Of a stretch of 64,000 nt of DNA, positions 1 through 50,936 are shown in pieces. Origin of the DNA: a virus; the IMG/VR virus record IMGVR_UViG_3300023179_000093, positions 1 to 64,000 of that record; one strand, written 5' to 3'. The notes under the pieces are model-generated. The model was not told the DNA's origin. It ran no database searches and worked only from the letters and a program-made list of their open reading frames with translations. The first letter of the stretch is position 1. Every line of letters starts with the position of its first letter. The translations under genes and the position numbers were made by a program.

Positions 1-2
1 TC

Positions 3-3000
3 TTCAACAAGAAGGGCGAGGCTCTCCCAGTCACGAGGGATAATGTTTCCAAGTGGATTGGGTTTGCCGCCGATTCAGCCGCTCTTGATGCGGCAAGGGA
101 GCGGGATGCTCGCCGTGAGTTGTCGGTTCCGTTTGACTCCGCACCTCCCGAGGGAGCCATCACCCAACCAGCCGCGGCTCAAGATGCGGCCAAACCCAAC
201 GAACAACAGATAGCTCAAACCAAGGACAATCAACCCAAGGAAGAGCCAAAAGCCACTCAAGCAATCCGCCAAGTTGCCTCGGAACTTCGCAAGCAGATGA
301 GCCCCGAGGCCAAGGTTGTGCTGGATTGGGTCGTCTCCCAGATCGTTGGGGACAAGAACGACATTGGAAAACTCACGACTTATAAGGAACTGGCCAAATA
401 TCTAAGTCAAGTCGCTGGTCGAACGGTAAGCGAAAAGAAGGTCGCCACCACGGTCAACGATGTCGTTCAAAAGCTTTCCGACTCTCTCAACGAGGACAAC
501 ATCAAGGTCAACCCTCAAGCCTTGGAGATGATTATCAGCCCAGAGGGCAAGGCCGCTCGTGAGCGTTTGGCTGGCGAGGAAGCTCAAGCCAAACAAGATC
601 GTGAAGTACGAAAGGCTCAAATGGATCTGGCCGATCGTGCCCGAAACCTTGACGCCGGGTACTCGGTTAAGGATCGGATCATCAATCTCGTCAGCAGCGC
701 CAACGCCGTAGTCCGTGGACGGATTAACGCAGAGGTTCTTAAACCAGCAGAAGAAGGATTGCTGGAGGACGAGCAAATCAACCAAAGGCTCGATAACATC
801 GAGAAAGGAAAACCCAATGAAAAGCCCGCAACTGGAGAAACTGTTTCCAGGAGTAACGCCCGAAGCACTGGACAGACTAAAGAAAGCAAGGTTCGTCAGC
901 GAACTGGAGAAAGCCGCGCAGAAGAACCAGGGACTGCAAACACTGAGCCATCTTCTGAAGGAAAACCCGCAAATGAGTCACGAGGAGATCAATCAGAACG
1001 TGCACGATCTGGCCGAGGTGGACGAAAAGTGGAGGGAAAACAGCAAGGAGCTACGGAGTCTGTTTCCGTTGACCCCAGACTAGCTGGTAAAAACACATCA
1101 CCAGCGGTTCGCAAGTTTGTCGATACGGTTACTTCTTCCGGAATTCCAGTCAGACTTGTTGCAAATACCGAGACGGGTAAGCCAGTTTCCGTGGTGGTAA
1201 GTTCCGCCGAAACGGAAGCCGACCCAGTCATTCAGGTAAACCCCAATCTTTTAAGCCGTGTGGCAAAGACCATTGGAGCCAAGGCCTATGCCACCTGGTC
1301 GTTCTTGGCTTTGACCGAAGAGGTCGTTCACTTCAAGTATCTCAAAATGCTTGCGGGAGAGGCGAAGGAACTTGGAATCTCCTTCCAGCAACACCTCAAA
1401 AACGAAACAAAACGGATTGCCGCTATCATCAAAAGACGGCGTGGACTTCGCCAAAAACTGGAAAAACTCTACAACAACGGAGAGAAGTTTAGTTCGGACT
1501 TTGAGATGGTCTTTGAGTTCATGCGGATGATCCCGCAGGAAAAACTGACTGGCACAATCACGGAAGCCTCTTATCTCGATGTCGAATCCATCATCCGTTC
1601 GATGGAACCCCAGGAGCGTAGGTTCATCTTTAGGTTTATGGACGCCATCCGGGATTTCCTTTACGGCATCACTGGACGGACGGCCGCCGAGACTAAGTTC
1701 TTGCGGGAAACCGCCGATGCCATTGTTCGTATGTCCAGCCGCATTTCAAGGAACCTTGCCTCTCCTACGGAGAAGTTGCCGGTTCAAATGAACTATTACA
1801 AGCCGACCGAAAAGACCATCAAAGAGACAGACGCCTCAAGGAAAGAAGCTGAAGAGGAAGCAAAAAGCCGAAGTGGTCTGGAGTCGGCTAACCTAGAATT
1901 TCTACAAAAGTATGCCAAAGACCTTGGGATCAAGGTGCCGATGGGCAAAAAAGAAATTGAGATTAAAAACGAGGTCACAGGAAAGATTGAGTTGAAGGTA
2001 TTCAAGTTCCCGGCTTGGAGCAAGGCTCAGTATGTCGAGGCAATTAAGGAAAAGCTAAAGGAAAAGGGCAAGGAATTAGGCGCGGCAATGCCTCAAATGA
2101 GGTTCAAGACCGAGTGGGCGTTCCAGCAGATTGACCGAGCTTTTGGTTCTAAAAGGGGAATCTTCAAGGGTTTAACGGTCGACAACAACAACACTGTTCC
2201 CTGGGAAAACCTAAAAGCAAGGATCATTAATAATAGGTTTAAAGGTAAAGGTGTAAGTAAGGCTGAGGCGGCATGGGTTCTTCCAACATTGGAAGCTCTT
2301 GTCCGAAATGGTCGAGTAGATGTCGATCAAGCGGTGAGTGCTATGAAGGCTTTGGCAAATAGCAAAGTTGAGGTTGAGTATCTTCAAAAACCAAAACTAT
2401 CACCACAAGAAGCAATCCAAAAGGCAATATCGGAAATGGGAACTCCATCCGAATTCTCAGTGAAAAGAGAGAATAAGGAAAGACGGCTAAGTGTGCGGTA
2501 CACTAAAATTAATCCGAAACCAATAAGGGAAATGCAGAATCTTAGGGAGGTTTTGGTACGTGCTCCTGGGGTAACAACTTTCAAGGGGCATTATTCAGAG
2601 AAAGATGTGATTGGATTTGGTAGAATGTACAGCACATCGCAGGACGGAAAAAAGGGAACCTTCCTCTTCGAAGTGCAATCAGACGCTAGAGATGAAAGGT
2701 TTCAAAGAGATGATTCTGATAATGACCCCGATCTTTTAGTGTGGAAAGTTAAAGCAACGGAAGGTAACCTACTTAAAGCGTTTGAACCAGAATTTGGAAC
2801 ACTGCAAGTAGCTTCTGCAAACTTTAATCCATATTCTCGGGAAGATATTGTCCCCGAAGGATATCGGGACGACATGGGGGAAAGCGACAGAATATTAAAA
2901 GGCGATATTCTGATTGGAGGTGAAGAAGAACCGCCCAAAGTTGTAGCCCGAAAAGTAGGTGAAGACACCTACCATGTATTCGGAATGTACACGCTCGACC

Positions 3001-6000
3001 TAGGTAGGCTACTTGATACTCATGGTCCTGGGTTAGTTGAAATTACGGCAGATATCACACCAATAAATCCTCCAAGTATCGAGCAAACCATAAAAAGAAA
3101 AGAGGAGTTAGAGAAAAACAAATCGCTCTTAGACGCCTACGAATCCTTAGTGCTTAAGGCCGTAATTGCAGATGCAATATCAAATGGGGAAGACTTTATC
3201 GCAATAACTGACCCAGAAACCGCCGCAATGACCGAAGGACATACGAAAGTTAAGGATGGGATGTATGTTCATTATGGGACGAGAAATGGATCGTTACACA
3301 ACATAGCTAAGAAACTTACTGGAGATACGGGAACTCCGTTTAACGATGGACCATCTTCCTACACATTCGATAACGAAGAGGCCGATCGGACAGAGACCCC
3401 TCCTGAAGTTCTTAGATACCCCAAGAAAGATGTCACAGGCGTTTCTTACAGCTTAGCTAAAATCAAAGAACTCGGCGAGGAAAGCGATGTCTACAATATT
3501 CTTGGAGCCGCCCTCCCAACGGATCGTCCTTACTGGCTGAAACCAGATGGGTCGGTTGTGGATGTCGAGGAAAACGCCCTCATCGACATGAACTCAATTG
3601 GTAGCCACTCCGAGGCCGCTTTGGATTACTTGCGGGAGAATAGCCCGAAAGATGAGTTTCTCACTACCTGGGGGCTTCTTGACCCACTTGAGAGGAAAGA
3701 ACGGCAAGGATCCGTTGTTGACGAGATGCTTAAAAGAGGGTGGCTCCGAGTAGTTGGGGATGCTTTCAATTTGTATTTTGAGGGGAACCCCAATCAAACC
3801 CAATTAAACAAACTCTTTGAGGCCGCGATTGAGGACGAAGTTAAACTGATTCAAGACCTCAGCGGAACTACCGGCAGAGCTAAATCAAAACTACTTTACG
3901 AACCGCCGATGCCCGACGAGTTGGGTGCGGCAATGCCTCGGCATGGATTTTCCACAACTCAGCCTAGATTCCTGCTCCATAGCACAAAGGTTCCTAGTTC
4001 CTTGGAAGGTCTTAAACAAGTATCGAAACTTGGAGGAACTCACGATGTCCGATTGTACATGGACAAAATGGGCAACAAGTTTGTCGTAAAATACGGACAG
4101 ACAGATGAGCAATTCGAGAATGAGGTGGCCGCCGACACCGTGTATCGAATCCTAAACTATCCTGTTCCGCCTTCTCGAATTATCGAGACTAGCGAAGGAA
4201 AAGCCAAGATATCGGCTTATGTCAATGGGGTTACCCTTGGGAAGTTTGAGGAGCAGATGGCAAAAAACCCAGAGGTCGTGGACGAGGTCTATAAACGTCT
4301 GGCGGACGGAGTACTTATTGACGCTTTCTTGTTTAACTACGATGTTCTTGGCCAGGATAAAGACAACATTGTGGTGTCTCACGAGGAGATCTTCCCAAGC
4401 GATGTAATTACCGATGGTTCAGAGCCAATCGTTCAGCATACCGCCTACAGAATTGACAATGGCGGATCTTTTGACACAAGAGCTACGGGCTTTAAGCGGA
4501 ACGAGCCTTTCTTCTACGACAGCTTTAAGAGGTTACAGGAAAAGTATCCCAAGCTCCAAATCAAGCCCACAGACATTGTGGCTCAGATTGGGGATCTTGT
4601 CCTCAATATGGACTCCATCCTTAACTCTATTCCAGAACGGCTTCGTCCAGTCATGGCTCAACGGCTTCAGTGGATGGCCGATCAGCTAAGTGCTTTAGAC
4701 ACTCTTCCGCCTGCCTCGGGGTATACCGAAGACGAGGTAAAGACGCATTTTGAAAGACTCTCCAAGGAAATGGCCGCCGTCAAAGTGGCCAGGAACGAGG
4801 CTGGAGACCTAATCAACGAGAAGACAAATAAGCCTTCAAGGATTGCCCTTTACCAAAACAACGGAAAACTTCTTGGCTACGAGCCTAAATCGGAATTTCG
4901 ATATAGGCTGGAACGAACTGCTACCTTCAAAATGTGGTTTGGGGATTGGGAAAATAACCCAAATGGGAAGGCAACCAGTAAGATCCTAGACGAAGCTGAA
5001 GAGCCAATGTTGATGTATCACGGAACCCGTGCCTCCAATCGACTTTTTGGGCAAGTCTTCAAACAAGACTCAGACTCTTACGACAATCGCCCCAAGTACC
5101 CAAGAGCCTTTGCCGGGAACATGTTCCGTGGTACCTGGATCTCAACTAGCCGCAAATGGGCTGAAGATTGGGCTGAGAACACAGGCCCAGACAAATATGA
5201 CGAGCAGGTAGTAATTCCCATGTATGTCAAAAGCACAAATCCTTTTGACCCAAACAATCCAGAGCATGTGGAGAAACTGATATCTTACCTCAAATCCAAA
5301 AACCACGATGTGGATCCAGTTTCTGAAATAGCCTTGCGGGAGGGGTACGACGATTGGACTATCTTTGAAAGTCGGTTCAATAAGGTTCGTAACAAAGAAG
5401 GTACCGACTATGTAATCTCACCTCAAAATACGGCTCCAAACCTTGATACTCTCTACAACACCGGGGACACCGAAGAAAAACGGAAACAAAGGTTCTTCTC
5501 AAAGATGCCTTACCCGACTCTTGAGGCGATTATCAACCTAGGGTTTGATGGGCTATGGACTCGTGAAAAGGGAATGGACGAATCGTCTTTATTCGAAAGA
5601 CAACCTTTAGTAGCTGCGGATCGTTTATTTGAGGCTATTCGGTCTGGTGACAAAGCGGAAGAATCAAAAGAACGGTCTGCACTATTGAGATCCATCAAAA
5701 GCTACAAGGAAAAGTCTGTTGCAAACCTCCTATCTTTTAGACCCGACGGCGTAAAGTCAGCGGCCAATGTTGGGATATTTAAATCTAAAGAAGACCAGAG
5801 CAAGCTGAAGGAAAGGGGAGACGCCCAAAACTACCTTGACCGAGTAGTCCGTAACCCGGCCACTTACTGGAACGAATTTAAAAAGAATGGGACTCGGTAT
5901 GTGAGTTACGAACCAGCCGAGAATTTAGTTACTTATGCTTTTGCAAGCCCAACCAGCTTGCGTGAAAACAATATTGCCAAGGTTAAACTCCAAGATGGGC

Positions 6001-9000
6001 TATATTATATCGGAGCAAGGACGGCTCCATCAGCTAGAAGTTACAAGCGTGAGCCTATGGATATTCTCGGGGCGGCGATGCCTCGGAAGTTTGGAGTAAG
6101 GCTTAAAGATAACCTCCATAAAGACGCTTACGATCGTCTCACTAACCTTACTTACGAGCCGATTCCCGATGCTATGGTTGAGGAGGAAGCGGTGGCTTAC
6201 CTAGAAAAGAATGGGATTCGCGGCTCGATTGACGCGGCTTTATCGAAGAGCAGTCCTCTTGAGTATGGTTCAAGGGAAGTTTTGGCGCAAATTGTAATAC
6301 AAAAGCTAAACGAAGAGTACGATAAGACCAAAGATCCTCGCATTCTTGAAGATCTAATCTCGTTCACTGACGCTTTCCTTTCCGCAACCTCAGAGGCTGG
6401 TCGAGCTCTCCGAGCCCTTAAACTTTGGACTTTGTTGTCCAAAGAAGGAATCTTGATGCTTTACCGCAAAAAATTGGACGAAACCAATCGAGAAAAGCGT
6501 GATCGGTTTAACGAATTCTTTGCAAAAGTTAAAAAGGAACTTTCGACTCTTCCAGAAGGGACTATCGACAAAGTTCTTAAAGACATGGAAGGAGTTATCG
6601 GAAAAGCCGATAAAGCTGGTCAAGAGGCCAGAACAAAGATTGCAGTAAACAACACAATGACTTTCTGGGAAAGTTTTGCCAATCAGATTGGTGAAAGCCT
6701 AGTCCGTAAAGCCAGCGAACAATTGGAAGAAGCCGAAGCCGCAAACGAAGAAGGCGCTCAAGAAGGTTCTGGTGAAGGTTCCGAGAAAACTACGGATGGT
6801 AAAACCAAGTCTTCTACGGAAAAAGCTAAGAATGCTAAGGTCATTAACCAAGCTGCACAGGAACTTAGCCAAAACATTAAGAAGATGTTTATGGCTTTGG
6901 CGGAAGAACAAGGGAGAAGGATTCGTGATCCACGCACAATTACTGACGAGGAGTTTGCCAATAAGACGGTAAAAGAACTTGATCAGATTCGCAAAACTGA
7001 AAAAGACTCCAAACAACTTAAGAAGCTAACCGACATGCTGGAAGCTTGGCCAAAAGCCAAACAAGCATGGCAGACTGCGGTCGACGCCATACGAGCCAAG
7101 ACAGCCACCAACCCAGACCTAGCTCAACTCTTTAACGAGTTTGTTGACCTTTCGTTGGACTCTCCTTTTACCATGCCACAGATCAAACGCCTTCTTTCGC
7201 TCAAAGGAATCAAGGTAGAGGATTTGATCCGTCAGCATTACCAAGAAGGCAAGCTGGCTAATAACGCCTATTCTCTAGCTAAAGAGCTTGTTGAACAAGC
7301 TGGGATTGGAGCCTGGGAAGAAGGGATTGGAGCAGACTACCAGGATCAAGAAGGATTTTATAAATACAAGAGAGAGAAAGACGCTCCCAAAGAAAGCCCT
7401 TCAAGTTTGGAAAAAATTCCCTCATTGTCGGAAAGACTGGCAAACGCCATTGCCCTTCAAATCCAAAAATATGTCACCGAAGAAACTTCCAAAAAACTTG
7501 ATCGAATCATCAAAAGGTTTTCTGACAAGCGTCTTCAACCTTCACTAAGGCGTTTTGCAAAAAGACTTGTTGAGTATCAAGCTCTTGGGCTTTTCCATAA
7601 TTCGTATGCCTGGACCGAGTTCCAAAGACAAGAAGGTCTTGACAAGGTAAAACCTGAAGTTGTCCAAAAACTTGTGGATCTTGTGGGGCAAGCCGAAAAG
7701 CTTGTAGGGTTTAAGAAAGAACAAAAATACGCTGACGCTATTTCTTTGATTGCGTACAAAACAGAAATCAATTTCTGGAACTTCTCTAGATCATGGTGGT
7801 ATTTCAGTATTTTGTCTGGGTTCATGACTCAAGCCGCAAATCTGTTGGGTAACTTTGCAAATAACTTTTTGATGGTCGGGCCTATCCTTGCAAAGCATCT
7901 GGCTCTATCCGTTACTAACCCGGCCAATGCTAAAGCAATTACCCAAAGGTTTATGCAGACTTTAAGTCTATCCCTAAAGGATATGGGGTATCTTCTTTAC
8001 ACAGGAGTCAGCGGAACGAGAAAGACCGAAGATCCTCATTACACCAAGCAGGCAAGAGAATTTTTTGAGATTGTGGCTAGGAACACTCCTTCCAAGCCAG
8101 TCAAAGTTATTACGACCAGTATCGCCACAATTGGTAGGGTTATGAGTGCGATTGATATGCTTTTTTACAACTTTGGAAAAGAAGCTTTTCTATACAATGC
8201 CGCTTATAATCAAGCTAAGGAAGACGGACTTTCTGGAAAAGAGGCGACTAAAAAAGCTTTAGAAATTACTTTTAGAAACTCTGAAGCTTTGGCTGGGTTC
8301 CAAGCCGTTGCCGAAACTGAGGGATACGCAATTGACAAAATGGCGTCTCTCCCAACTCAAATAAAACAAGGTATTGAACAAGCCATTCGTGTTCAGGAAC
8401 TTGCAAACACAAACCTTGAAGGAAGCGAGGAATCAAAATCTCTTGCCAAATACGGAGAGATTGCTGGTAACGAAGTAACTTTTAATGAAGATCCAAAAGG
8501 CTTTTTGGGCGCCGTTCATCGTCACCTTGCAGCGTTGACTAATCGATACAACCTTATCTCGCTTGTCATTCCCTTTACTAGAATTGTGGCTAATGTCTGG
8601 AACCAAGGAATTGACTTTACAGGTCTTGGATTGGTCAAAGCTAAAATGATGAAGGATTTGCCTGGAACAGCCGAAGAAGTAGAAGCTCAGAAAAAACTTA
8701 TGAAAGCCAGAGGGTTAGCTGGTTTGGCGGCTATTGCGGGTACTTGGTTGCTGGATTCGTTAACTTGCGGGAATTACGACACCTTTGGTTTTGAGCTTTG
8801 CGTTGGTGGTCCGGGGCCAAAAGAAGTATCCCAAAGAGAATTGTTAAAAAATAGGCTTAAATGGAAACCAAACGCTATTTTCTTAAGAAGCAAATTCTTA
8901 AATCCGGATGGGATTTATCTCAGCTATCTCCCAACGCCCTTAGCGTTTGGTCTTGGAACAATTGGTTTGTTTAAAGACAACCAAACCTATCGATATTTCA

Positions 9001-9683
9001 CTTCTAAAGCAGGGGGAGACCAGGCTATGGCGGCTATTTTAAGAACAATAAGCATTCCATTTGAAATGAATTTCCTTTCTGGTTTAGGCGATGTGTTTGA
9101 CATTCTTTCCCCATCTAACCCAGAGTCAGCCTTAGCCAAAGCTAAATCCTTTGTCTCAAGGCTTGGCTCTTCTTTAATTGCTCCAAACATTCTTAGGGAT
9201 CTTGACCAACTTACTGGCCTTGGTGGCCCAAGAACAGCTAGAGAAGGGTTATTGCAAGGAGCCTTTATTGCAAACACGCTTTTTGCAAGGCAACTCTTTG
9301 GGGAAACAGAAACAGATTTATTGGGCAAACCAGTTTACATGACCTCTCGAATAATGAGCGGGGCAACTAAAGACCCTCTTGTTCAAGCATTGATCGAGAA
9401 AAATGCACTTCCGTCATCCGCTCAAAAAGACAAGCTTTTTGGGGTGGTTCCTTTGGACGACGAGCAATACGCCGCCTATAGGAGCGAAAGAAACAAGATT
9501 CTTGGGAAACTTTTAGATAACCAAAGCACCATTCAGGCCATCAAGAACATGGATCCTTACACCGCCCAGGTGTTTGTCTCGAAGATGACAAGTGCGGCAA
9601 GCCAGCAAGCCAAGGCTAACCTCATCAACAAGGATCCCTCAATTGTCGAAGGTGTTGGTGAGCTTAAAACACGAGCGAAATAA
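3..9683 (+). CDS. Giant polyvalent virion/ejection protein, 5'-truncated (>3200 aa)
   Basis: Frame is open from position 3 (FNKKGEALP...), so the true start is upstream of the window. Contains a degenerate zincin-like EEVVH motif, an EVQSD domain, a kinase-like domain (VVKY...NEVAA...NYDV...DNI...IDNG), an ART-PolyVal-like domain (FKMWFGDW...YHGT...NPFD...GFDG) and a helical C-terminus typical of ejected proteins. Confidence 0.8.
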   Translation, partial: FNKKGEALPVTRDNVSKWIGFAADSAALDAARERDARRELSVPFDSAPPEGAITQPAAAQDAAKPNEQQIAQTKDNQPKEEPKATQAIRQVASELRKQMSPEAKVVLDWVVSQIVGDKNDIGKLTTYKELAKYLSQVAGRTVSEKKVATTVNDVVQKLSDSLNEDNIKVNPQALEMIISPEGKAARERLAGEEAQAKQDREVRKAQMDLADRARNLDAGYSVKDRIINLVSSANAVVRGRINAEVLKPAEEGLLEDEQINQRLDNIEKGKPNEKPATGETVSRSNARSTGQTKESKVRQRTGESRAEEPGTANTEPSSEGKPANESRGDQSERARSGRGGRKVEGKQQGATESVSVDPRLAGKNTSPAVRKFVDTVTSSGIPVRLVANTETGKPVSVVVSSAETEADPVIQVNPNLLSRVAKTIGAKAYATWSFLALTEEVVHFKYLKMLAGEAKELGISFQQHLKNETKRIAAIIKRRRGLRQKLEKLYNNGEKFSSDFEMVFEFMRMIPQEKLTGTITEASYLDVESIIRSMEPQERRFIFRFMDAIRDFLYGITGRTAAETKFLRETADAIVRMSSRISRNLASPTEKLPVQMNYYKPTEKTIKETDASRKEAEEEAKSRSGLESANLEFLQKYAKDLGIKVPMGKKEIEIKNEVTGKIELKVFKFPAWSKAQYVEAIKEKLKEKGKELGAAMPQMRFKTEWAFQQIDRAFGSKRGIFKGLTVDNNNTVPWENLKARIINNRFKGKGVSKAEAAWVLPTLEALVRNGRVDVDQAVSAMKALANSKVEVEYLQKPKLSPQEAIQKAISEMGTPSEFSVKRENKERRLSVRYTKINPKPIREMQNLREVLVRAPGVTTFKGHYSEKDVIGFGRMYSTSQDGKKGTFLFEVQSDARDERFQRDDSDNDPDLLVWKVKATEGNLLKAFEPEFGTLQVASANFNPYSREDIVPEGYRDDMGESDRILKGDILIGGEEEPPKVVARKVGEDTYHVFGMYTLDLGRLLDTHGPGLVEITADITPINPPSIEQTIKRKEELEKNKSLLDAYESLVLKAVIADAISNGEDFIAITDPETAAMTEGHTKVKDGMYVHYGTRNGSLHNIAKKLTGDTGTPFNDGPSSYTFDNEEADRTETPPEVLRYPKKDVTGVSYSLAKIKELGEESDVYNILGAALPTDRPYWLKPDGSVVDVEENALIDMNSIGSHSEAALDYLRENSPKDEFLTTWGLLDPLERKERQGSVVDEMLKRGWLRVVGDAFNLYFEGNPNQTQLNKLFEAAIEDEVKLIQDLSGTTGRAKSKLLYEPPMPDELGAAMPRHGFSTTQPRFLLHSTKVPSSLEGLKQVSKLGGTHDVRLYMDKMGNKFVVKYGQTDEQFENEVAADTVYRILNYPVPPSRIIETSEGKAKISAYVNGVTLGKFEEQMAKNPEVVDEVYKRLADGVLIDAFLFNYDVLGQDKDNIVVSHEEIFPSDVITDGSEPIVQHTAYRIDNGGSFDTRATGFKRNEPFFYDSFKRLQEKYPKLQIKPTDIVAQIGDLVLNMDSILNSIPERLRPVMAQRLQWMADQLSALDTLPPASGYTEDEVKTHFERLSKEMAAVKVARNEAGDLINEKTNKPSRIALYQNNGKLLGYEPKSEFRYRLERTATFKMWFGDWENNPNGKATSKILDEAEEPMLMYHGTRASNRLFGQVFKQDSDSYDNRPKYPRAFAGNMFRGTWISTSRKWAEDWAENTGPDKYDEQVVIPMYVKSTNPFDPNNPEHVEKLISYLKSKNHDVDPVSEIALREGYDDWTIFESRFNKVRNKEGTDYVISPQNTAPNLDTLYNTGDTEEKRKQRFFSKMPYPTLEAIINLGFDGLWTREKGMDESSLFERQPLVAADRLFEAIRSGDKAEESKERSALLRSIKSYKEKSVANLLSFRPDGVKSAANVGIFKSKEDQSKLKERGDAQNYLDRVVRNPATYWNEFKKNGTRYVSYEPAENLVTYAFASPTSLRENNIAKVKLQDGLYYIGARTAPSARSYKREPMDILGAAMPRKFGVRLKDNLHKDAYDRLTNLTYEPIPDAMVEEEAVAYLEKNGIRGSIDAALSKSSPLEYGSREVLAQIVIQKLNEEYDKTKDPRILEDLISFTDAFLSATSEAGRALRALKLWTLLSKEGILMLYRKKLDETNREKRDRFNEFFAKVKKELSTLPEGTIDKVLKDMEGVIGKADKAGQEARTKIAVNNTMTFWESFANQIGESLVRKASEQLEEAEAANEEGAQEGSGEGSEKTTDGKTKSSTEKAKNAKVINQAAQELSQNIKKMFMALAEEQGRRIRDPRTITDEEFANKTVKELDQIRKTEKDSKQLKKLTDMLEAWPKAKQAWQTAVDAIRAKTATNPDLAQLFNEFVDLSLDSPFTMPQIKRLLSLKGIKVEDLIRQHYQEGKLANNAYSLAKELVEQAGIGAWEEGIGADYQDQEGFYKYKREKDAPKESPSSLEKIPSLSERLANAIALQIQKYVTEETSKKLDRIIKRFSDKRLQPSLRRFAKRLVEYQALGLFHNSYAWTEFQRQEGLDKVKPEVVQKLVDLVGQAEKLVGFKKEQKYADAISLIAYKTEINFWNFSRSWWYFSILSGFMTQAANLLGNFANNFLMVGPILAKHLALSVTNPANAKAITQRFMQTLSLSLKDMGYLLYTGVSGTRKTEDPHYTKQAREFFEIVARNTPSKPVKVITTSIATIGRVMSAIDMLFYNFGKEAFLYNAAYNQAKEDGLSGKEATKKALEITFRNSEALAGFQAVAETEGYAIDKMASLPTQIKQGIEQAIRVQELANTNLEGSEESKSLAKYGEIAGNEVTFNEDPKGFLGAVHRHLAALTNRYNLISLVIPFTRIVANVWNQGIDFTGLGLVKAKMMKDLPGTAEEVEAQKKLMKARGLAGLAAIAGTWLLDSLTCGNYDTFGFELCVGGPGPKEVSQRELLKNRLKWKPNAIFLRSKFLNPDGIYLSYLPTPLAFGLGTIGLFKDNQTYRYFTSKAGGDQAMAAILRTISIPFEMNFLSGLGDVFDILSPSNPESALAKAKSFVSRLGSSLIAPNILRDLDQLTGLGGPRTAREGLLQGAFIANTLFARQLFGETETDLLGKPVYMTSRIMSGATKDPLVQALIEKNALPSSAQKDKLFGVVPLDDEQYAAYRSERNKILGKLLDNQSTIQAIKNMDPYTAQVFVSKMTSAASQQAKANLINKDPSIVEGVGELKTRAK

Positions 9684-40089: not shown

Positions 40090-41292
40090 GTTTGATTGGA
40101 ACGATATTTTCCGCCACCACTGGTCGGATTTCAAAATATCGTTTGGCCACCTCCTGAGTTATCGATTCGCCGTGAAGGGCAACCGTTTTGTAGGTCCCCA
40201 GCAGCATGCTGACCGAGTGTCCGCAAGCCAAGGCTGTTCTGGCTGCGTCTTGCTGTAAGCAAGGTAATAAGAGGCAAAGCTGTGCCGCATCCCATTATCG
40301 ATCCACTTTGATGGTAATTTAGGGTTTTCCGACTTAATCAACCAGGGGCTGACAAAACGTGTCGGCTCCCTGGTCCCCATCGAGTTCATAATGTTCCCCT
40401 TCTTACCCTTGTAGGGAGCCAGCCATTCGGCGAGGTTTGGGAGAAGTGGGACAAGGCGGGATTGATTCGTCTTGGTGATGTTGCGATCCAATCGAATATT
40501 CCCACCAACCCAATCAATATCCTCCCAGTTAAGTCGGCAAAGCTCGGCAGTGCGAACTCCTGAAAAAAGACCAATCGCCAAGAAAGGGATTAACTTGGGC
40601 TCGGCCAACTGAAGCATGGCTTCAGCCTGTTCGGGGGAATAGATCTCCACATCCGGGCGTTTAAAGCGGATCTCTTCAGACTTTTCGGCCGCATGACGCT
40701 TGTCCTCGAGGAGATAGCCTTTCCGTCTGGCGTAGTTGAAAAGGACAATAATAGATGCCCGATGATTGTGGCGTGTGCGTGGGGCATAGGTGGGGTCATC
40801 TAGGTATTCGTCAATATCCCTTGGGGTGATGACTGGGATCGGGCGGTTCATCCTTTCGGAAAAACGGGTGAGGTGATGGCGGATAGTCCGTTTCTGCTCC
40901 TTGGACAGGTTGGGGTCAGCGTCGTTGCGCTTAAGGAACTCTTCCACAAGCTCCTTAATTTTGATTTGTTTAACCTCTTTGGGATTGGATTCGATGTAAG
41001 CCTTAATGGCTCGGTCTAGGGGAACCCCATTCAAGAGGGACTCGCACTGCCGATAATACTGAAGTTCCTTTTGCGTGATCTGCGTCGTTGTGGCCGAGCC
41101 GTCGGCCAGTTGTTCCGCAATCGCCTTTGCCTCCCGTTTGGCTAGCTCAAGCGAGGCCATGCCTCGGCGCATCCGTTTTTTGCCGACATACCAAACGATG
41201 ATGTAGGTCATGTACTCGTCTCCCCCGCGGCGCAGAGGACACTCGTAAATCCGAACTTTTGCCCAGCCTTTTTGAATAACGATTGGTTTCAT
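40067..41292 (-). pseudogene. int: Tyrosine integrase with a -1 frameshift near 40252
   Basis: G.R..E and RHSFAS lie in the main frame; GH (40217-40222) and catalytic Tyr (40190-40192) lie in the -1 frame. Confidence 0.8.
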
Positions 41293-41557: not shown

Positions 41558-43297
41558 GTGTCTTCCCATTGGGTTATGGGAGAGAGCTTTGAAAAATATG
41601 GTAGAATTTGGCCAATTGAGGCAACTGACGCCACAATCGAACTTATAGGCTTTAGGGAAAATTTTAGCCCAGAGTCTGGTGGCTTAGGCAAGTATGGGCA
41701 TTTCAAAAAAGTAGTAGATTTGCTGTGGCCATATGACCCCAAGAAGAACAAATCGGGATTTCATTGGAACCCTTGGGCCGAGCGAATCTTTGAGGAAGCC
41801 TGCAAGTGGAACTACCTAGGCATCTCTGGCCCTAAATCGTCCAGCAAAACTCACTGCATCGGTATTTGGGGGCTAGTTAATTGGCTTTGCGACCCATTCA
41901 ATACTCTTGTCCTTGTCACCACCACCTCCGTTCGAGAGGCCAGAAAGCGAATGTGGGGGGTAATTCGGGAGCGTCATCTTCAAATTCCAGGTCTTCCTGG
42001 TCGAATTGTGGACTCGATGGGAAAGTTAATTTTAGATGAAGCTGGGAGTGACCGCTCCTCAATAACCCTTATCCCTTCCGCAAAGGACAAGGAAAAGGAA
42101 GCCACCGAAAAGCTTATTGGACTAAAGAACAAAAGGGTATTTCTGCTGGTCGACGAGGCCACGGACGTTTCGCCAGCGATCTTTGAGGCTATTCATAACC
42201 TAGATTCCAACCCCTATTTCCAATGTATCGCCTTGGGTAACTTCGCTTCGGCCTACGACCCCTTTGGCCAGTTCATCACTCCAAAAGTAACCTGGAACAA
42301 CGTAAACGCTGAAATGGACGGCTGGGAGACTTCAAGAGGCTATTGCATTCATCTTGATGGCGAGAGGACACCCAACATTGACGCAGAGGATCAATGGCCA
42401 TTTTTACTTACCTCAAAGCAACTTCGAGAGGCTCGTGAGTTTCAAGGGGAGAACAGCCTTTCTTACTGGCGGTTTATTCGATCCTTCCCATCGCCTATTG
42501 GAGCCGAGCAGAACATTTACTCCGAGGCGGACTTGAGGAGATATGAGGGAGAAGTTCAGCCAAAATGGGACGGAGCTCCGATCAAGGTTGCCGGGTTTGA
42601 CCCAGCCTTTACCAATGGTGGAGATCGTTCGGTTTTGTATATCGGCTCATTTGGCAAGCTGGATACAGGAGTTTATGGGTTGGCCTTTGAGAAACCGCAT
42701 ATCCTTCGGGAAGACTCAACTAAAGCCAACGAACCACGAAACTTTCAAATCGCCAGATTGGTAAAGGAGACATGCCAAGCCCAGGGTGTGCTCCCGGAGC
42801 ACCTTGCAATTGACGCCACTGGCGCAGGGGATCCTTTTTGCGACATCCTAAGTGAGCTTTGGTCAAATCGTATCTATCGGGTCAAGTTTGGGGAAAAGCC
42901 CTCCAACCTTCCAGTCAGCGGCGTGTCTCCAATCAAGTCGAACGAGAAGTTCAACAATCGGGTTACTGAATTGTGGTATGTCGGCGTTGAGTTTTTGCGT
43001 TCTGGTCAATTGCGGGGTATTTCCCCCGACTTGGCTAGGGAGTTAACCTCGAGAAAATACAGCACCCTTGCCGGTGGAAAACTGATTGTAGAGCCTAAAA
43101 AGGATATGAAAGCCAGAATGGGGAAATCCCCAGACTTGGCCGACGCCGCCTTGATTATGCTGGATTTGTGTCGAAATCGTCTTGGAGCCTACGCTGGAGC
43201 AAAACTGACAAAACTTCGTGGTGACTCGTGGCTTGAAAAATTGAAGAAACACGATGTTTGCTCCCATATGGATCGCCAAGTATTGGGCGTCTCTTGA
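41558..43297 (+). CDS. terL: Terminase large subunit
   Basis: Walker A variant GPKSSSKT, LLVDEA, LGN coupling motif, RNase H GFDPA..GGD, IDATG.G, KSPD.ADA. Confidence 0.9.
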   Translation: MSSHWVMGESFEKYGRIWPIEATDATIELIGFRENFSPESGGLGKYGHFKKVVDLLWPYDPKKNKSGFHWNPWAERIFEEACKWNYLGISGPKSSSKTHCIGIWGLVNWLCDPFNTLVLVTTTSVREARKRMWGVIRERHLQIPGLPGRIVDSMGKLILDEAGSDRSSITLIPSAKDKEKEATEKLIGLKNKRVFLLVDEATDVSPAIFEAIHNLDSNPYFQCIALGNFASAYDPFGQFITPKVTWNNVNAEMDGWETSRGYCIHLDGERTPNIDAEDQWPFLLTSKQLREAREFQGENSLSYWRFIRSFPSPIGAEQNIYSEADLRRYEGEVQPKWDGAPIKVAGFDPAFTNGGDRSVLYIGSFGKLDTGVYGLAFEKPHILREDSTKANEPRNFQIARLVKETCQAQGVLPEHLAIDATGAGDPFCDILSELWSNRIYRVKFGEKPSNLPVSGVSPIKSNEKFNNRVTELWYVGVEFLRSGQLRGISPDLARELTSRKYSTLAGGKLIVEPKKDMKARMGKSPDLADAALIMLDLCRNRLGAYAGAKLTKLRGDSWLEKLKKHDVCSHMDRQVLGVS

Positions 43298-47402: not shown

Positions 47403-48686
47403 ATGTCTACGACTTTTGCAGTCGAGCAGCTCTTGATCAAAGAGTCCGGCCGTATTGGCCCGGATATCTACCGCAAGACTGTCGACACCTCTCCTTGGCT
47501 CAAACTCGTGAATCAGGACGTGTGGCCTGACGAGATGGGCGATTCTGTCAGTGTGCTCGTTTACGAGCGTTCGCTGCCGTACAACTACGACAGCAACGGC
47601 AACCTCACCAGCGTGAAAACCACCTGGAACTCTCTCACCGGTAACGGTGCGAACGGAGTTCTCGGAGCCGCTGGCGAAGGTGGCCCCAACGGCACAGGAA
47701 ACTCCTTTGCTGCTGGTTCGAGCAATGTGATTGAGTTCGGTCAGAGGCTTCGCTCCTATGGGCTGAAAGCTTCCTCGATGAACTCCCCCGACCTGTCGCT
47801 TAACGACCTGCGCTTCCCGCTCAAGCGGAAAGAGCAGCTGTCGAATGTGATGGCGATCTTGGGCGAAGCCACGGCTGAAGCCTGGAAAGAACGCTACTAC
47901 GACGAGTATGTGCGTCTCTCCGAGAACAAGTTCATCGCTACGACCACGACTGGCAGTGCTATTGGCCTAACCTCGGCCAATGGTTCCGATGTTGAGGCGT
48001 TTGGAACGGTTGACGAAACTACCATCGTTGCGCTCAATCAGCAGCATCTGGATAAGATGTACCTGCGGATGATCCGTGATGGTGGTGCTCAGGAAGCCTA
48101 TGGTCGCCAGAACGGCGCTCCTCTGTTCCTGCTGATCACCAGCTACGAACAGAGCGATGCTCTGATCAAGGCCAATGGTACTTCCGGGCAGACGGCTACC
48201 CGTGACGACTTCCGTTGGAGCGATCGGGCTAACGAGTTGCTTGGACCTCTTGGGGTGCAGCGCACCTACAAGGGTTTCCATCACCTTGTTGATCCGTTCC
48301 CCCGTCGGTACAACTACAACAGCACGTCCAATGTTTGGACTCGTGTGTTCCCCTTCAAAAAAGTGGCAACCACTGCGAACACCCGAACTGGCGTCAAGTA
48401 TGACCTCAACTCCGATTACGAGACTGCGGAATACGAAGAGTCGATCATCTATCATCCGATGGTGTTCACCTCGCTCGTGCCGAAGCCGATCAGCGGAACT
48501 GATTCCGCCGACTTCGCCCCGCAGACCTATCGTGGTGAGTTCACGTGGCGCAACATCCCGGATCGTCAGTACAATCCTGACGGAACGGTTGGCTTCTTCC
48601 GAGCGATCTTCGCCTCGGGCAGCAAGCCGATCTTCCCGAATCTGGGATACGTGATCCGTCACGCTCGGACTGGCCCGGTAGTCTAA
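47403..48686 (+). CDS. Major capsid protein
   Basis: 427 aa; follows the scaffold; strong codon bias; followed by a terminator. Confidence 0.85.
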   Translation: MSTTFAVEQLLIKESGRIGPDIYRKTVDTSPWLKLVNQDVWPDEMGDSVSVLVYERSLPYNYDSNGNLTSVKTTWNSLTGNGANGVLGAAGEGGPNGTGNSFAAGSSNVIEFGQRLRSYGLKASSMNSPDLSLNDLRFPLKRKEQLSNVMAILGEATAEAWKERYYDEYVRLSENKFIATTTTGSAIGLTSANGSDVEAFGTVDETTIVALNQQHLDKMYLRMIRDGGAQEAYGRQNGAPLFLLITSYEQSDALIKANGTSGQTATRDDFRWSDRANELLGPLGVQRTYKGFHHLVDPFPRRYNYNSTSNVWTRVFPFKKVATTANTRTGVKYDLNSDYETAEYEESIIYHPMVFTSLVPKPISGTDSADFAPQTYRGEFTWRNIPDRQYNPDGTVGFFRAIFASGSKPIFPNLGYVIRHARTGPVV

Positions 48687-49670: not shown

Positions 49671-50008
49671 TTCGTTGGCTTCGGTCAAACTTTCAAGGGA
49701 TGGTAGCAATCCTAGTCGCTATCATCATTTTCTTTTTACTTGGCCCCATCCTTCAGGGCTTTGACACCACCGCAGGGGTTGTTGACTTAGGAAGTCTTCA
49801 TGTTCTGATCTTTGGAGCGGTTAGATTTCTTTTCTGCACATTCCTTGCCTGGTCAGTACTCCAGTTGGATTGGAAGATTCTAGATCGATACATTGATCGT
49901 GGCGCGCTTAGGGACGATTGGAAGGAAGCCTGCCCAAAGACCCGTTTGTTTACTTTTGTTTTTGTTTTTGGAGTTCTTTTGATTTCAGCAATTTTGTCAT
50001 GCAAGTAG
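49667..50008 (+). CDS. Holin-like protein (3 TM)
   Basis: Three hydrophobic segments, upstream of the endolysin. Confidence 0.6.
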   Translation: MIRWLRSNFQGMVAILVAIIIFFLLGPILQGFDTTAGVVDLGSLHVLIFGAVRFLFCTFLAWSVLQLDWKILDRYIDRGALRDDWKEACPKTRLFTFVFVFGVLLISAILSCK

Positions 50009-50529
50009 TTTATGTTGCGATTCTTTTTGCGTTTCTTTCCCACTCTATGGCTAGCCCAGGAGTTGAGGCGCAGAGGCTTCTCGTCATCGAGCAGGCTCGA
50101 AAATCCCTTGGTATTCGGGAAGCCACGGGTCGAAACGACGGGCCCCTGGTGGACGAGATCCTTTCATCGGTAGGTCTTGAAGGTACCAAGGCGCCGTGGT
50201 GTGCGGCTTTCATTGTCTGGGTTGGCGACAAGGCCTTTGGGGCGTCGTTATTCAATCCCTACCCTAGGTCGGCTTGGAGCCCGGTATTTCTTGCTAAACC
50301 GACATGGGATCGACAAAGGAGGGGAACCCCTCTTAAACCAGCAGATGTCTTTGGAATCTGGTTCAACTCGATGGGCAGGGTGGCGCACGTTGGCCTTGTG
50401 GAAAAGAACGAGGGGGATTGGTTAGTTACGATTGAAGGGAATACAAATGGGGGAGGGAGTCGGGACGGAGATGGAGTTTATCGGCGTCGTCGCTTGGCTG
50501 TTAATGTACTTGGAAAGGACTGGTTGTGA
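49999..50529 (+). CDS. CHAP-domain endolysin with signal peptide
   Basis: PWCAAF, HVGLV and TIEGNT motifs; N-terminus MQVVYVAILFAFLSHSMA. Confidence 0.85.
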   Translation: MQVVYVAILFAFLSHSMASPGVEAQRLLVIEQARKSLGIREATGRNDGPLVDEILSSVGLEGTKAPWCAAFIVWVGDKAFGASLFNPYPRSAWSPVFLAKPTWDRQRRGTPLKPADVFGIWFNSMGRVAHVGLVEKNEGDWLVTIEGNTNGGGSRDGDGVYRRRRLAVNVLGKDWL

Positions 50530-50936
50530 GCCAGCACATTGGAGCCATTGGGGTTAGTAAAGTTAGCTCCATATTACTTGAAAATGGTTTTATTGTTAGC
50601 CATCCGGTATACGACAATGGTTATGACCTAATTACTGATTGGAAGGGAACTTTAAATCGTGTCCAAGTAAAGACTACTTTTGGTGGGGAAGATGGTGTAA
50701 AGAACCGAAGCAAACTTAAATTCTTTGCTTTGCGTGGGCAGGGTGGCCAAAACAGAAGCCCAAAAAAACTTTATGGCAAAGGCATAGCAGATGCCTTTGT
50801 ATTTTATAACGCAAGGCACAACGCTATCTTTGTAATACCTAACGACAAACTCCCAAAAACTACCTCAGTCTACTTTGCCCCCAACTGCACTTGGCGCGAT
50901 AATTGGGATGTCTTGCGAAATCCAAAGAGGGGATAG
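50526..50936 (+). CDS. PD-(D/E)XK endonuclease (homing-like)
   Basis: G..G...V...L...GF.V..P.....YDL.......RVQVKT. Confidence 0.8.
   Translation: MSQHIGAIGVSKVSSILLENGFIVSHPVYDNGYDLITDWKGTLNRVQVKTTFGGEDGVKNRSKLKFFALRGQGGQNRSPKKLYGKGIADAFVFYNARHNAIFVIPNDKLPKTTSVYFAPNCTWRDNWDVLRNPKRG

Follow-up and report, generated by a model that had tools for sequence, protein, structure and literature searches.

A recurrent LGAA(M/L)P peptide at the module boundaries of a giant phage protein, a candidate processing site

The closest described systems are the phage polyvalent proteins of Iyer, Burroughs, Anand, de Souza and Aravind (2017; PMC5512222), who proposed that MPTase domains cut such proteins into units. 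According to these authors, P1 DdrB is processed, and N4 vRNAP, despite its MPTase, enters the virion without being cut. The main text of their paper names no junction or cleavage peptide and uses the word 'linker' 0 times; its supplementary files might list the clade. No defined cleavage sites for polyvalent-protein processing, an idea dating from 2017, were found in the literature searched. A second point of comparison is gp47 of the podovirus phi24B, a 2811-aa polyvalent protein detected in virions by mass spectrometry and proposed to be an ejection protein (2026 preprint, 10.64898/2026.04.10.717836); the available part of that report makes no mention of gp47 cleavage. The gp47 homologue of Stx2 phage 86 (2783 aa) contains HExxH motifs and one chance LGAA, with no recurring junction word.

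The DNA analyzed here, referred to as the window, is a stretch of 64,000 nucleotides from the circular 72-kb contig of an uncultured freshwater phage. At its left end the window truncates a giant open reading frame (ORF) of 4148 aa in full, which spans the circular join, and the remaining 922 residues lie across that join. The gene sits among phage late and virion genes, as the last in a + strand run that comprises terminase, capsid-like, SU10-adaptor-like and tail-fibre genes, and synteny around it is kept in L003 and L004. Searches for a cultured relative of the giant protein returned four weak plus one weak matches in a phage collection and none among genome contigs. In the explanation that we consider best, and that taken as a whole has about an even chance of being right, the ORF would encode a phage-type polyvalent protein, its gene closing the late (structural) operon of a temperate, podovirus-like phage. 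Judged from gene order and by analogy, the protein probably travels inside the virion and is delivered together with the DNA. The features of the ORF, in window coordinates, are as follows.

3..9683, + strand: window part of the giant late ORF (P0001, 3226 aa); the ORF starts at about 69188 on G000:C1, 922 residues earlier
1317..1331, + strand: zincin-like signature EEVVH (aa 439-443), aligned with HETVH of a sister clade; E440 and H443 invariant
1404..1406, + strand: E468, an invariant Glu lying 25 residues past the second His and a candidate for the third metal ligand (gluzincin pattern)
2076..2093, + strand: junction 1, LGAAMP (aa 692-697)
2076..3500, + strand: module B, 475 aa, containing FLFEVQSD, no known family; a presence/absence cassette
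3501..3518, + strand: junction 2, LGAALP (aa 1167-1172)
3501..3920, + strand: module C, 140 aa, PTDRPYWLKPDG...H...GWLRV, no known family; the best conserved module
3921..3938, + strand: junction 3, LGAAMP (aa 1307-1312)
3921..6065, + strand: module D, 715 aa, with putative kinase-like motifs in its first half and then an ART domain
4989..5300, + strand: ART-PolyVal match in Pfam (aa 1663-1766)
6066..6083, + strand: junction 4, LGAAMP (aa 2022-2027)
6066..9683, + strand: module E, the conserved C-terminal 1205 aa, no known family

One very large chain carries several unrelated domains, with ART-PolyVal and the separable modules B, C, D and E. The sizes of B, C and D match the three blocks delineated in the initial annotation of this DNA, and its ART label also proved real: against a cut-off of 31.2 bits, the Pfam ART-PolyVal profile reaches 30.5 bits here and 38.6 bits in the homologue P0005. 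The putative kinase-like half of module D contains invariant K, E, D..DN and IDNGG motifs; neither Pfam nor a PDB profile search returned a kinase for this module. No strongly hydrophobic 19-residue stretch occurs in module E. The locus resembles the systems of Iyer et al. (PMC5512222), as far as their main text describes them, in that a giant late-gene enzyme string (ART-PolyVal and a possible truncated kinase) lies behind an HExxH-type domain, and in that LPD38 and an LPD5-like part are found in a distant relative, P0032. It differs from them in that the query gives no Pfam MPTase-PolyVal match, in that its clade has Glu or Gln in place of the first His, in that modules B, C and E fall in no described family, and in that the junctions are defined to the residue. 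The module after the last junction of P0032 shares 38% identity with the LPD5 region in the phi24B gp47 group, and no similarity to that group was detected for the window's own protein.

The peptide LGAA[ML]P begins at nucleotides 2076, 3501, 3921 and 6066. A six-frame scan of the window found these four copies as the sole matches, all within the giant ORF, which confirms the fourfold repeat first annotated at 2073, 3498, 3918 and 6063, the positions of the residue preceding each copy. From residue composition, 0.0011 copies are expected in 4148 aa (Poisson P for at least four, about 6e-14), and when all 4-mers were counted blind, none but LGAA occurred four times. The looser pattern [LI]GA[AS] occurs twice in the 17,922 aa of the 71 other ORFs, where about two are expected by chance on a rough estimate. 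In general form, the peptide at the module starts reads (D/E/N)-(I/E/V)-L-G-A-A-(M/L)-P. The three DNA copies originally quoted as synonymously diverged (GGC GCG GCA ATG CCT, GGT GCG GCA ATG CCT and GGG GCG GCG ATG CCT) are correct, and the fourth reads GGA GCC GCC CTC CCA.

The motif marks module boundaries and persists in homologues, as had been proposed. Across 33 metagenomic homologues, the peptide recurs at the same four junctions even where the flanks are merely 33-50% identical, with an [LIFVM]-G site in 12/12 proteins at junction 1, 29/29 at junction 2, 25/31 at junction 3 and 31/31 at junction 4; in the other 6 of 31 proteins, junction 3 reads L-N-A-A-M-P. At junction 4, all of 27 sequences have the same D, L, G, P, R, F and G residues, against 4-60% identity in the flanking columns. 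Among differing codons, the LGAAxP core shows 98 synonymous and 40 non-synonymous differences, against 268 and 418 in the flanks (Fisher p 6e-12, with pairs that are not independent). The motif codons thus differ mostly synonymously, so that selection acts on the peptide rather than on the DNA. Directly after G-A-A the length varies (AMP, PAMP, EVRP, SPM, KV). In P0032, the order is C, B, another module and the LPD5/LPD38 part, and the modules are joined by four [DN][ILV]LGA[AG]KV sites.

About 250 residues upstream of the first junction, in the same chain, lies the signature EEVVH, which the initial annotation had called a degenerate zincin motif. In a sister clade the aligned residues form a true HExxH, namely HETVH in P0007, P0013, P0014, P0023 and P0025; they are QEIIH in P0004 and P0012 and EEIIH in P0032. 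E440, H443 and E468 do not vary among 27 sequences, nor in a set of nine that includes the remote P0037; R471 is invariant among the 27. Where an MPTase would show HExxH, the query reads EEVVH, and since its clade has Glu or Gln in place of the first metal-binding His, the domain may be inactive or no peptidase. Pfam MPTase-PolyVal (PF18818) gave no match by hmmscan (E up to 0.1) or in a six-frame search (E up to 1). When the domain profile was aligned with the MPTase region of N4 vRNAP using hhalign, the motifs fell in register, but at a probability of no more than 0.4%, and a PDB profile search with the zincin-like domain returned no zincin.

The junction peptide is a concrete, if unproven, candidate cleavage site that would separate the enzymes. 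In the reading we favor, which we consider about evenly poised between right and wrong, the giant protein would be a polyvalent effector train, the peptide its endoproteolytic site and the zincin-like domain the prime suspect as the cutter, acting from upstream in the same chain. The middle of the chain would then consist of autonomous modules in series, namely B, C, D (with the kinase-like half and the ART) and E, and cutting at the peptide would yield an N-terminal carrier followed by these four. The scissile bond may lie ahead of the hydrophobic position that is conserved here (GAA|M/L/V/I-P), in keeping with what gluzincins usually prefer at S1'. Several observations count against this reading: the replaced first His and the negative MPTase and zincin profile results, the zincin-like domain of P0037 in a protein that lacks LGAA, the HExxH motifs of the Stx2 phage 86 protein in the absence of a recurring LGAA, the L-N-A-A-M-P variant at junction 3, the uncut N4 vRNAP, and an exchange in P0004 and P0006 whose breakpoints are not all on the motif. 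Comparable to such a train are MARTX toxins and viral polyproteins, in which effector modules share one chain and are freed by a built-in protease that cuts short sites in the inter-module linkers; the effector content of MARTX toxins is shuffled by recombination between strains. These proteins are unrelated to the giant protein and use other protease classes and sites, and the likeness is one of working, not of membership. A more specific version, which we hold only tentatively, envisages a self-processing plug-and-play train in which an atypical metallopeptidase, with His, Glu or Gln as first ligand, recognizes a cognate LGAA plus clade-specific tail, protease and site having co-evolved. With the same site at every module start, effectors could be inserted, deleted or swapped in frame with processing retained.

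Module turnover at the motif-marked boundaries and module exchange do occur. Module B is present in 11 and absent from 18 of 29 informative proteins, the gap running exactly from motif 1 to motif 2, and between P0004 and P0019 the whole of B differs while both sides are 95-100% identical. On the 29-row tree, the state of B changes nine times, at least seven of these changes being forced by well-supported branches, and its scatter resembles that of shuffled labels; the phylogeny of B disagrees with that of the backbone (AU p 0.00033). P0004 and P0006 diverge inside B alone, from about 95 residues past junction 1 to near junction 2. As to whether breakpoints in homologues fall on the motif, the gain and loss of B is exact, but not every exchange breakpoint lies there, as P0004 and P0006 show. 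Proteins without B carry a hybrid junction, with the left context of junction 1 and the right context of junction 2 (LPTDRP), and L005, P0021 and P0022 have two tandem motifs where B is absent. No module difference was found at junctions 3 and 4 among 31 proteins. Under the processing reading, B comes and goes exactly at the motif because the same peptide frames every module, and recombinants joining two copies would remain in frame with a functional site.

These observations also bear on an alternative that we judge unlikely, in which the peptide would be a mere recombination joint or scar of in-frame module insertion and deletion, and the protein would work as one uncut chain. The hybrid junctions fit it, as do the high lability of B and its exchange between lineages, and N4 vRNAP offers an uncut precedent (PMC5512222). 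Three of the four window copies contain GCG, which at 12% is the least used Ala codon (P 0.006, a post hoc value), and copies 1 and 3 have a 13-nt run in common; runs of 13-15 nt are, however, short for homologous recombination. Against a scar, the residues of the motif persist under codons that differ freely from copy to copy and from phage to phage, the motif is retained at junctions 3 and 4 without any module difference, and P0032 keeps it with another tail (KV) on unrelated DNA. The tandem motifs are likewise not expected from crossover within the motif. A pure DNA role for the linker as a microhomology, one of the two options first put forward, is disfavored by the synonymous divergence and by retention of the motif at junctions 3 and 4, where the modules do not vary. 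The cleavage-site and microhomology options are not mutually exclusive.

Somewhat less probable still is cutting in trans by a host protease or an unrecognized phage protease, the zincin-like domain having another role or none. Replacement of the first metal ligand in the clade, the negative metallopeptidase profile tests and P0037, which has the domain and lacks LGAA, all agree with this. Several bacterial endopeptidases favor small residues at -3 and -1, and G-A-A at the junctions resembles such sites. Protease families were, however, not found elsewhere in the phage, as Pfam gave nothing but a weak CHAP match in the 71 other ORFs, PHROGs returned no peptidase in 38 ORFs, and nothing was found in the six frames for Peptidase_S78, CLP_protease or Peptidase_S49. 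The sole motif-like site beyond the giant protein, VLGAAGEGG in a variable loop of the capsid-like protein, also argues against a trans cutter, this loop being absent from 4/4 homologous capsid proteins. Furthermore, the motif tail differs between clades that differ in zincin signature, which constitutes one independent contrast only. Cutting of the protein as capsid cargo by a prohead protease finds no support, with no S78, ClpP or S49 family found, no junction motif in the scaffold-like protein and no conservation of the capsid VLGAA.

A slim chance, in our estimation, attaches to the peptide being a functional linker that is never cleaved, for instance by serving as a hinge or by docking a chaperone, the portal or a capsid-interior partner, in which case the repetition would let every module be handled alike. 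Conservation at the protein level and the position between modules fit binding and cutting equally. There is no partner candidate, and the variable length after G-A-A suits protease subsites slightly better than a fixed docking surface.

That the motif ATG serves as an internal translation start, the modules being also made as separate proteins, is highly improbable: three of four copies do contain an ATG behind G-rich codons, but at junction 2 and in homologues the place of Met is taken by Leu (CTC, TTG, CTT), Val, Ile, Lys or Glu and lies at no fixed distance from G-A-A, and near-length and longer-length searches returned one fragment each and no stand-alone B or C protein.

For the processing-site reading, candidate sites are now given to the residue at four places together with their natural variants, and these variants (modules present or absent, the Gly-to-Asn site, tandem empty sites and the His, Glu and Gln protease forms) offer in effect a set of natural mutants. 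Should the sites prove to be cut, sequence alone would suffice to predict which mature effectors such phages make, and effector exchange between phages would also be explained. If they are not, the motif still provides a clean marker of module boundaries and recombination joints in a family with almost no annotated domains. As pure speculation, a cut after G-A-A would leave Ala-Ala ends, which can be likened to an ssrA-type degron and may limit the effectors in time.

The peptide LGAA[ML]P occurs four times in the protein encoded by the giant open reading frame (ORF) at 3..9683 (+), at residues 692, 1167, 1307 and 2022, as the initial annotation had claimed, and no further copy is present in the six frames of the window. 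The three blocks said to lie between the copies measure 475, 140 and 715 aa, and the EEVVH motif placed upstream at about 1317 is indeed present at nt 1317. The factual statements of that annotation hold, with the sole exception that the ORF extends past what the window shows. It is open at the left window edge and continues for another 2,778 nt across the join of the record to a Met at ~C1:69188, giving a full length of 4148 aa. The window is the first 64,000 nt of a 72,081-nt record that is 100% complete according to CheckV, and its final 130 nt are a copy of the first 130 with four mismatches, all in the last four letters, leaving 126 identical nt (window 1-126 versus C1:71952-72077). Hence the record is either circular or terminally redundant and comprises 71,951 unique nt; because the giant ORF spans the join, the window holds only the last 3226 of the 4148 residues (adding 922 to a window residue number gives the full-length numbering). 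Composition predicts 0.0011 copies of the motif in the protein, with a probability of four copies of ~6e-14, and chance or low complexity as its origin was rejected on this expectation; in a blind 4-mer count, LGAA was the sole word occurring four times.

Homologues were identified by a word-indexed search with residues 650-2100 as the query and an E-value threshold of 1e-5. The search yielded 33 homologous proteins of 1891-4279 aa, all metagenomic, and all relatives discussed here are predictions from metagenomes. The query was cut at the motifs into modules A (before junction 1), B, C, D and E, and the pieces were mapped by BLASTP, which found C, D and E in every near-full-length relative. 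The four junctions were conserved as follows, the query being counted in each case.
Junction 1, nt 2076 (+), between A and B: hydrophobic-Gly at the aligned place in 12/12 proteins
Junction 2, nt 3501 (+), between B and C: hydrophobic-Gly in 29/29 proteins
Junction 3, nt 3921 (+), between C and D: hydrophobic-Gly in 25/31 proteins, the remaining six having L-N-A-A-M-P
Junction 4, nt 6066 (+), between D and E: hydrophobic-Gly in 31/31 proteins

Across 52 distinct junction peptides, in which the G at position 0 is fixed by the anchoring of the sites, position -3 is D (29), N (8) or G (7), position -2 is I, E or V, and position -1 is L (41) or I (10); A follows at +1 (44) and A (38) or S (9) at +2, and then M, L, V or I, usually with P and a basic residue behind it. 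Inserts of one or two residues between G-A-A and the hydrophobic residue are tolerated (IGAPAMPRR, LGAAEVRPRR, VIGASPMRF). At junction 4, D2020, L2022, G2023, P2027, R2028, F2030 and G2031 are identical in 26/26 other rows, in columns whose surroundings are 4-60% identical. The motif is thus an island of conservation. An internal translation start at the motif was considered and rejected on the junction peptides and the codons of the homologues.

The same core recurs in a distant relative, P0032 (4055 aa), which matches the query only in C (32%) and B (36-41%), with C preceding B. Its four sites, [DN][ILV]LGA[AG]KV at 1490, 1652, 2385 and 3104, delimit C, B, a third module for which BLAST shows no relation to D, and a C-terminal part matching Pfam LPD38 (E 1.5e-37). 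Within this part, one stretch has 38% identity to an 'LPD5 domain-containing protein' found in Stx-converting phages and others. An hhalign comparison of the query E with P0032 revealed no relation. In P0032, the L-G-A-A core therefore accompanies module boundaries despite a different module order, content and motif tail. A second distant protein, P0034 (2942 aa), shares only the ART domain with the query and carries five ART-PolyVal stretches and repeated HELQH modules, with words such as PNQIKLADG occurring three to four times; it may likewise be a polyvalent protein assembled from repeats, with a junction word of its own.

Module B was found in the query and 10 other proteins (P0004-P0009 and P0011-P0014) and is missing in 18 (P0002, P0010, P0015-P0019 and P0021-P0031). 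P0003 and P0020 begin after junction 2 and were left out of all B counts, and P0033 ends within B. All proteins lacking B run from the tail of A (KLKELGKK-like) through at most 18 residues to LGAA and the right context of junction 2, LPTDRPYW. P0004, with B, and P0019, without it, are 95-100% identical on both sides in 40-residue windows and differ by the entire stretch between the motifs. P0002 likewise lacks B, although its A, C and D share 92-99% identity with those of the query and its E shares 89%. The expectation that indel breakpoints would fall on the motif was borne out for the B gap, which runs from motif to motif, but not for P0004 and P0006, which are near-identical apart from a section of B that begins ~95 residues past junction 1 and ends near junction 2.

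Mapped onto a D phylogeny built by maximum likelihood (IQ-TREE careful, LG+G4; 29 rows), B presence requires 9 changes, at least 7 of them forced by starred branches. Shuffled labels give a mean of 9.0 changes, and the trait is thus maximally labile. The tree of B disagrees with that of D: the B of the query is closest to those of P0007, P0009 and P0011 (76% identity), whose D is only ~42% identical to that of the query. An approximately unbiased (AU) test rejected a B tree keeping the D-defined clade (delta lnL 139, p 0.00033), the tested group having been named from the D tree, though after sight of the first B tree.

Several observations on B stand beside these comparisons. B has an internal hypervariable stretch at ~2391-2480 (aa ~797-826), with ~150-aa inserts in several relatives, and two lack ~90 aa farther downstream; none of these differences is bordered by an LGAA motif. 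At the position of B, locus L005 (9965-10000) and proteins P0021 and P0022 have tandem motifs, TLGAALPRM-LGASMPTDRP, which look like an empty slot. Among the sequencing runs, X5 has contigs spanning both junctions in the B-containing form, and the contigs of X2 end near nt 2181-2241 and 3498-3527, none bridging. X6 and X7 have contigs over both flanks of B and none over B itself; no contig of theirs joins across B, and they give no evidence of a B-less form. A 714-nt X2 contig, from an independent lake sample, has short matches to 1843-1860 and 3455-3472 that appear in the opposite order, separated by 32 other letters. It may derive from a relative whose modules are ordered differently; the matches are too short for interpretation. 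Near-length and longer-length searches for stand-alone B or C genes, the latter up to 2000 aa, returned fragments only.

Codons were compared between the window and five loci of relatives (L002, L004, L005, L012 and L013). The six core codons show 98 synonymous versus 40 non-synonymous pairwise changes, and 26 flanking codons per site show 268 versus 418 (odds ratio 3.8, Fisher p 6e-12, with non-independent pairs). The motif uses all four Gly, all four Ala and all four Pro codons. The synonymous excess in the core and this full codon variety indicate selection on residues, not on a DNA word. Taken together, the data show a selected junction peptide framing autonomous, exchangeable modules. A site acting purely as a recombination joint would suit the lability of B and the conflict between trees; set against selection on the residues, we regard this explanation as rather unlikely.

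The DNA of the window copies also shows an oddity that points in the opposite direction. Three of the four copies (2079-2090, 3924-3935 and 6069-6080) encode the first Ala with GCG, which makes up 12% of the Ala codons in the gene and is the rarest of them, a bias with a chance probability of 0.006, judged post hoc. Copies 1 and 3 have an identical 13-nt run in common. Both features may reflect a common DNA origin of the copies.

The region upstream of junction 1 contains a candidate protease. The query TEEVVH (aa 438-443) aligns with THETVH in P0007, P0013, P0014, P0023 and P0025, NQEIIH in P0004 and P0012, AEEIIH in P0032 and [NA]EE[VI]AH in others. Across 27 sequences, E440, H443, E468 and R471 do not vary, and E440, H443 and E468 are also fixed in a nine-row alignment including the remote P0037 (DEEMSH). 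The pattern resembles a gluzincin-like signature, HExxH with a Glu 25 residues on, in which the first His would be replaceable. Several results speak against this reading, among them the occurrence of the domain without LGAA in P0037. Pfam MPTase-PolyVal matched neither the giant protein nor the six frames, and the PDB profile search returned no zincin. In hhalign against the N4 vRNAP MPTase region (aa 2130-2448, as defined by Iyer et al. 2017, PMC5512222), the motifs were in register at a probability of 0.4%. Phmmer gave only 7 matches to the region in 1.84 billion representatives, so the domain family is small. Co-variation of the site tail with the protease variant amounts to one clade split.

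We favour, at about an even chance, the reading that the junction peptide is a processing site and that the zincin-like domain in the same chain would be the cutter. Repetition of the site would then keep recombinants in frame and functional as a side effect of its processing role. Autoprocessing of polyvalent proteins was already proposed by Iyer et al. 2017 (PMC5512222); we found no literature defining junction peptides in such proteins, including the main text of that paper, and the motif strings appeared only in unrelated papers. Cleavage of the same conserved site by a trans-acting protease is improbable, and searches with PHROGs, with Pfam and, in six frames, for Peptidase_S78, CLP_protease and Peptidase_S49 revealed no other peptidase in the phage. 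A linker that is never cleaved is also improbable. Iyer et al. 2017 offer precedents for both outcomes, with P1 DdrB processed and N4 vRNAP unprocessed.

Among the other modules, D matches ART-PolyVal, confirming the ART of the proposed kinase+ART block, and its first half contains K, E, D..DN and IDNGG motifs that are invariant and would fit the truncated kinases reported from polyvalent proteins by Iyer et al. 2017 (PMC5512222); Pfam and PDB profile searches gave no kinase support for this half. B, C and E had no match in Pfam, NCBIfam, PDB or Atlas. NCBIfam gave nothing, and the ESM Atlas returned only low-score unnamed clusters for B and C. PDB sequence and profile searches with B, C, D, the zincin region and the kinase-like half returned nothing relevant, and PHROGs nothing useful on the giant protein.

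PHROGs and Pfam assigned a terminase, tail-collar fibre proteins, a family A DNA polymerase, a helicase, an integrase, a C5 DNA methyltransferase, an endolysin-like CHAP protein and a glucosaminidase. An SU10 adaptor match in one protein (32.8 bits, cut-off 27) indicates a podovirus-like tail. Between portal-sized and capsid-like genes lies a strongly charged 439-aa protein that looks scaffold-like. The giant gene is the final gene of the + strand late block, with the same gene order around its homologues in loci L003 and L004, and the phage has no tRNA genes. Two genes lie back to back.
40159-41292 (-): integrase gene
41558-43297 (+): terminase gene

Since the integrase gene lies beside the terminase gene, the phage is probably temperate. 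No prophage relatives were found in genome contigs of 185,579 species genomes, and no cultured phage is related. Apart from the possible source sample, three studies have lake and freshwater metagenomes that contain the window stretch 1500-4500, and no RNA runs are listed among the datasets carrying it.

Outside the giant protein, the only motif-like site is VLGAAGEGG, in a Gly-rich loop of the capsid-like protein (47403-48686 (+), residue 87). This loop is hypervariable, and 4/4 homologous capsid proteins lack the motif, so this occurrence is most likely due to chance. The idea of a prohead protease was rejected on that absence and because the searches for Peptidase_S78, CLP_protease and Peptidase_S49 were empty. 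At 49918-50936 (+), a CHAP-like/endolysin-like gene and a PD-(D/E)XK endonuclease gene lie within the structural block, between capsid-like and tail genes. A 925-aa late protein at 58157-60934 (+) contains seven MBG_3 domain stretches (E 6e-152) and probably serves in the tail as a surface or adhesin-like protein.
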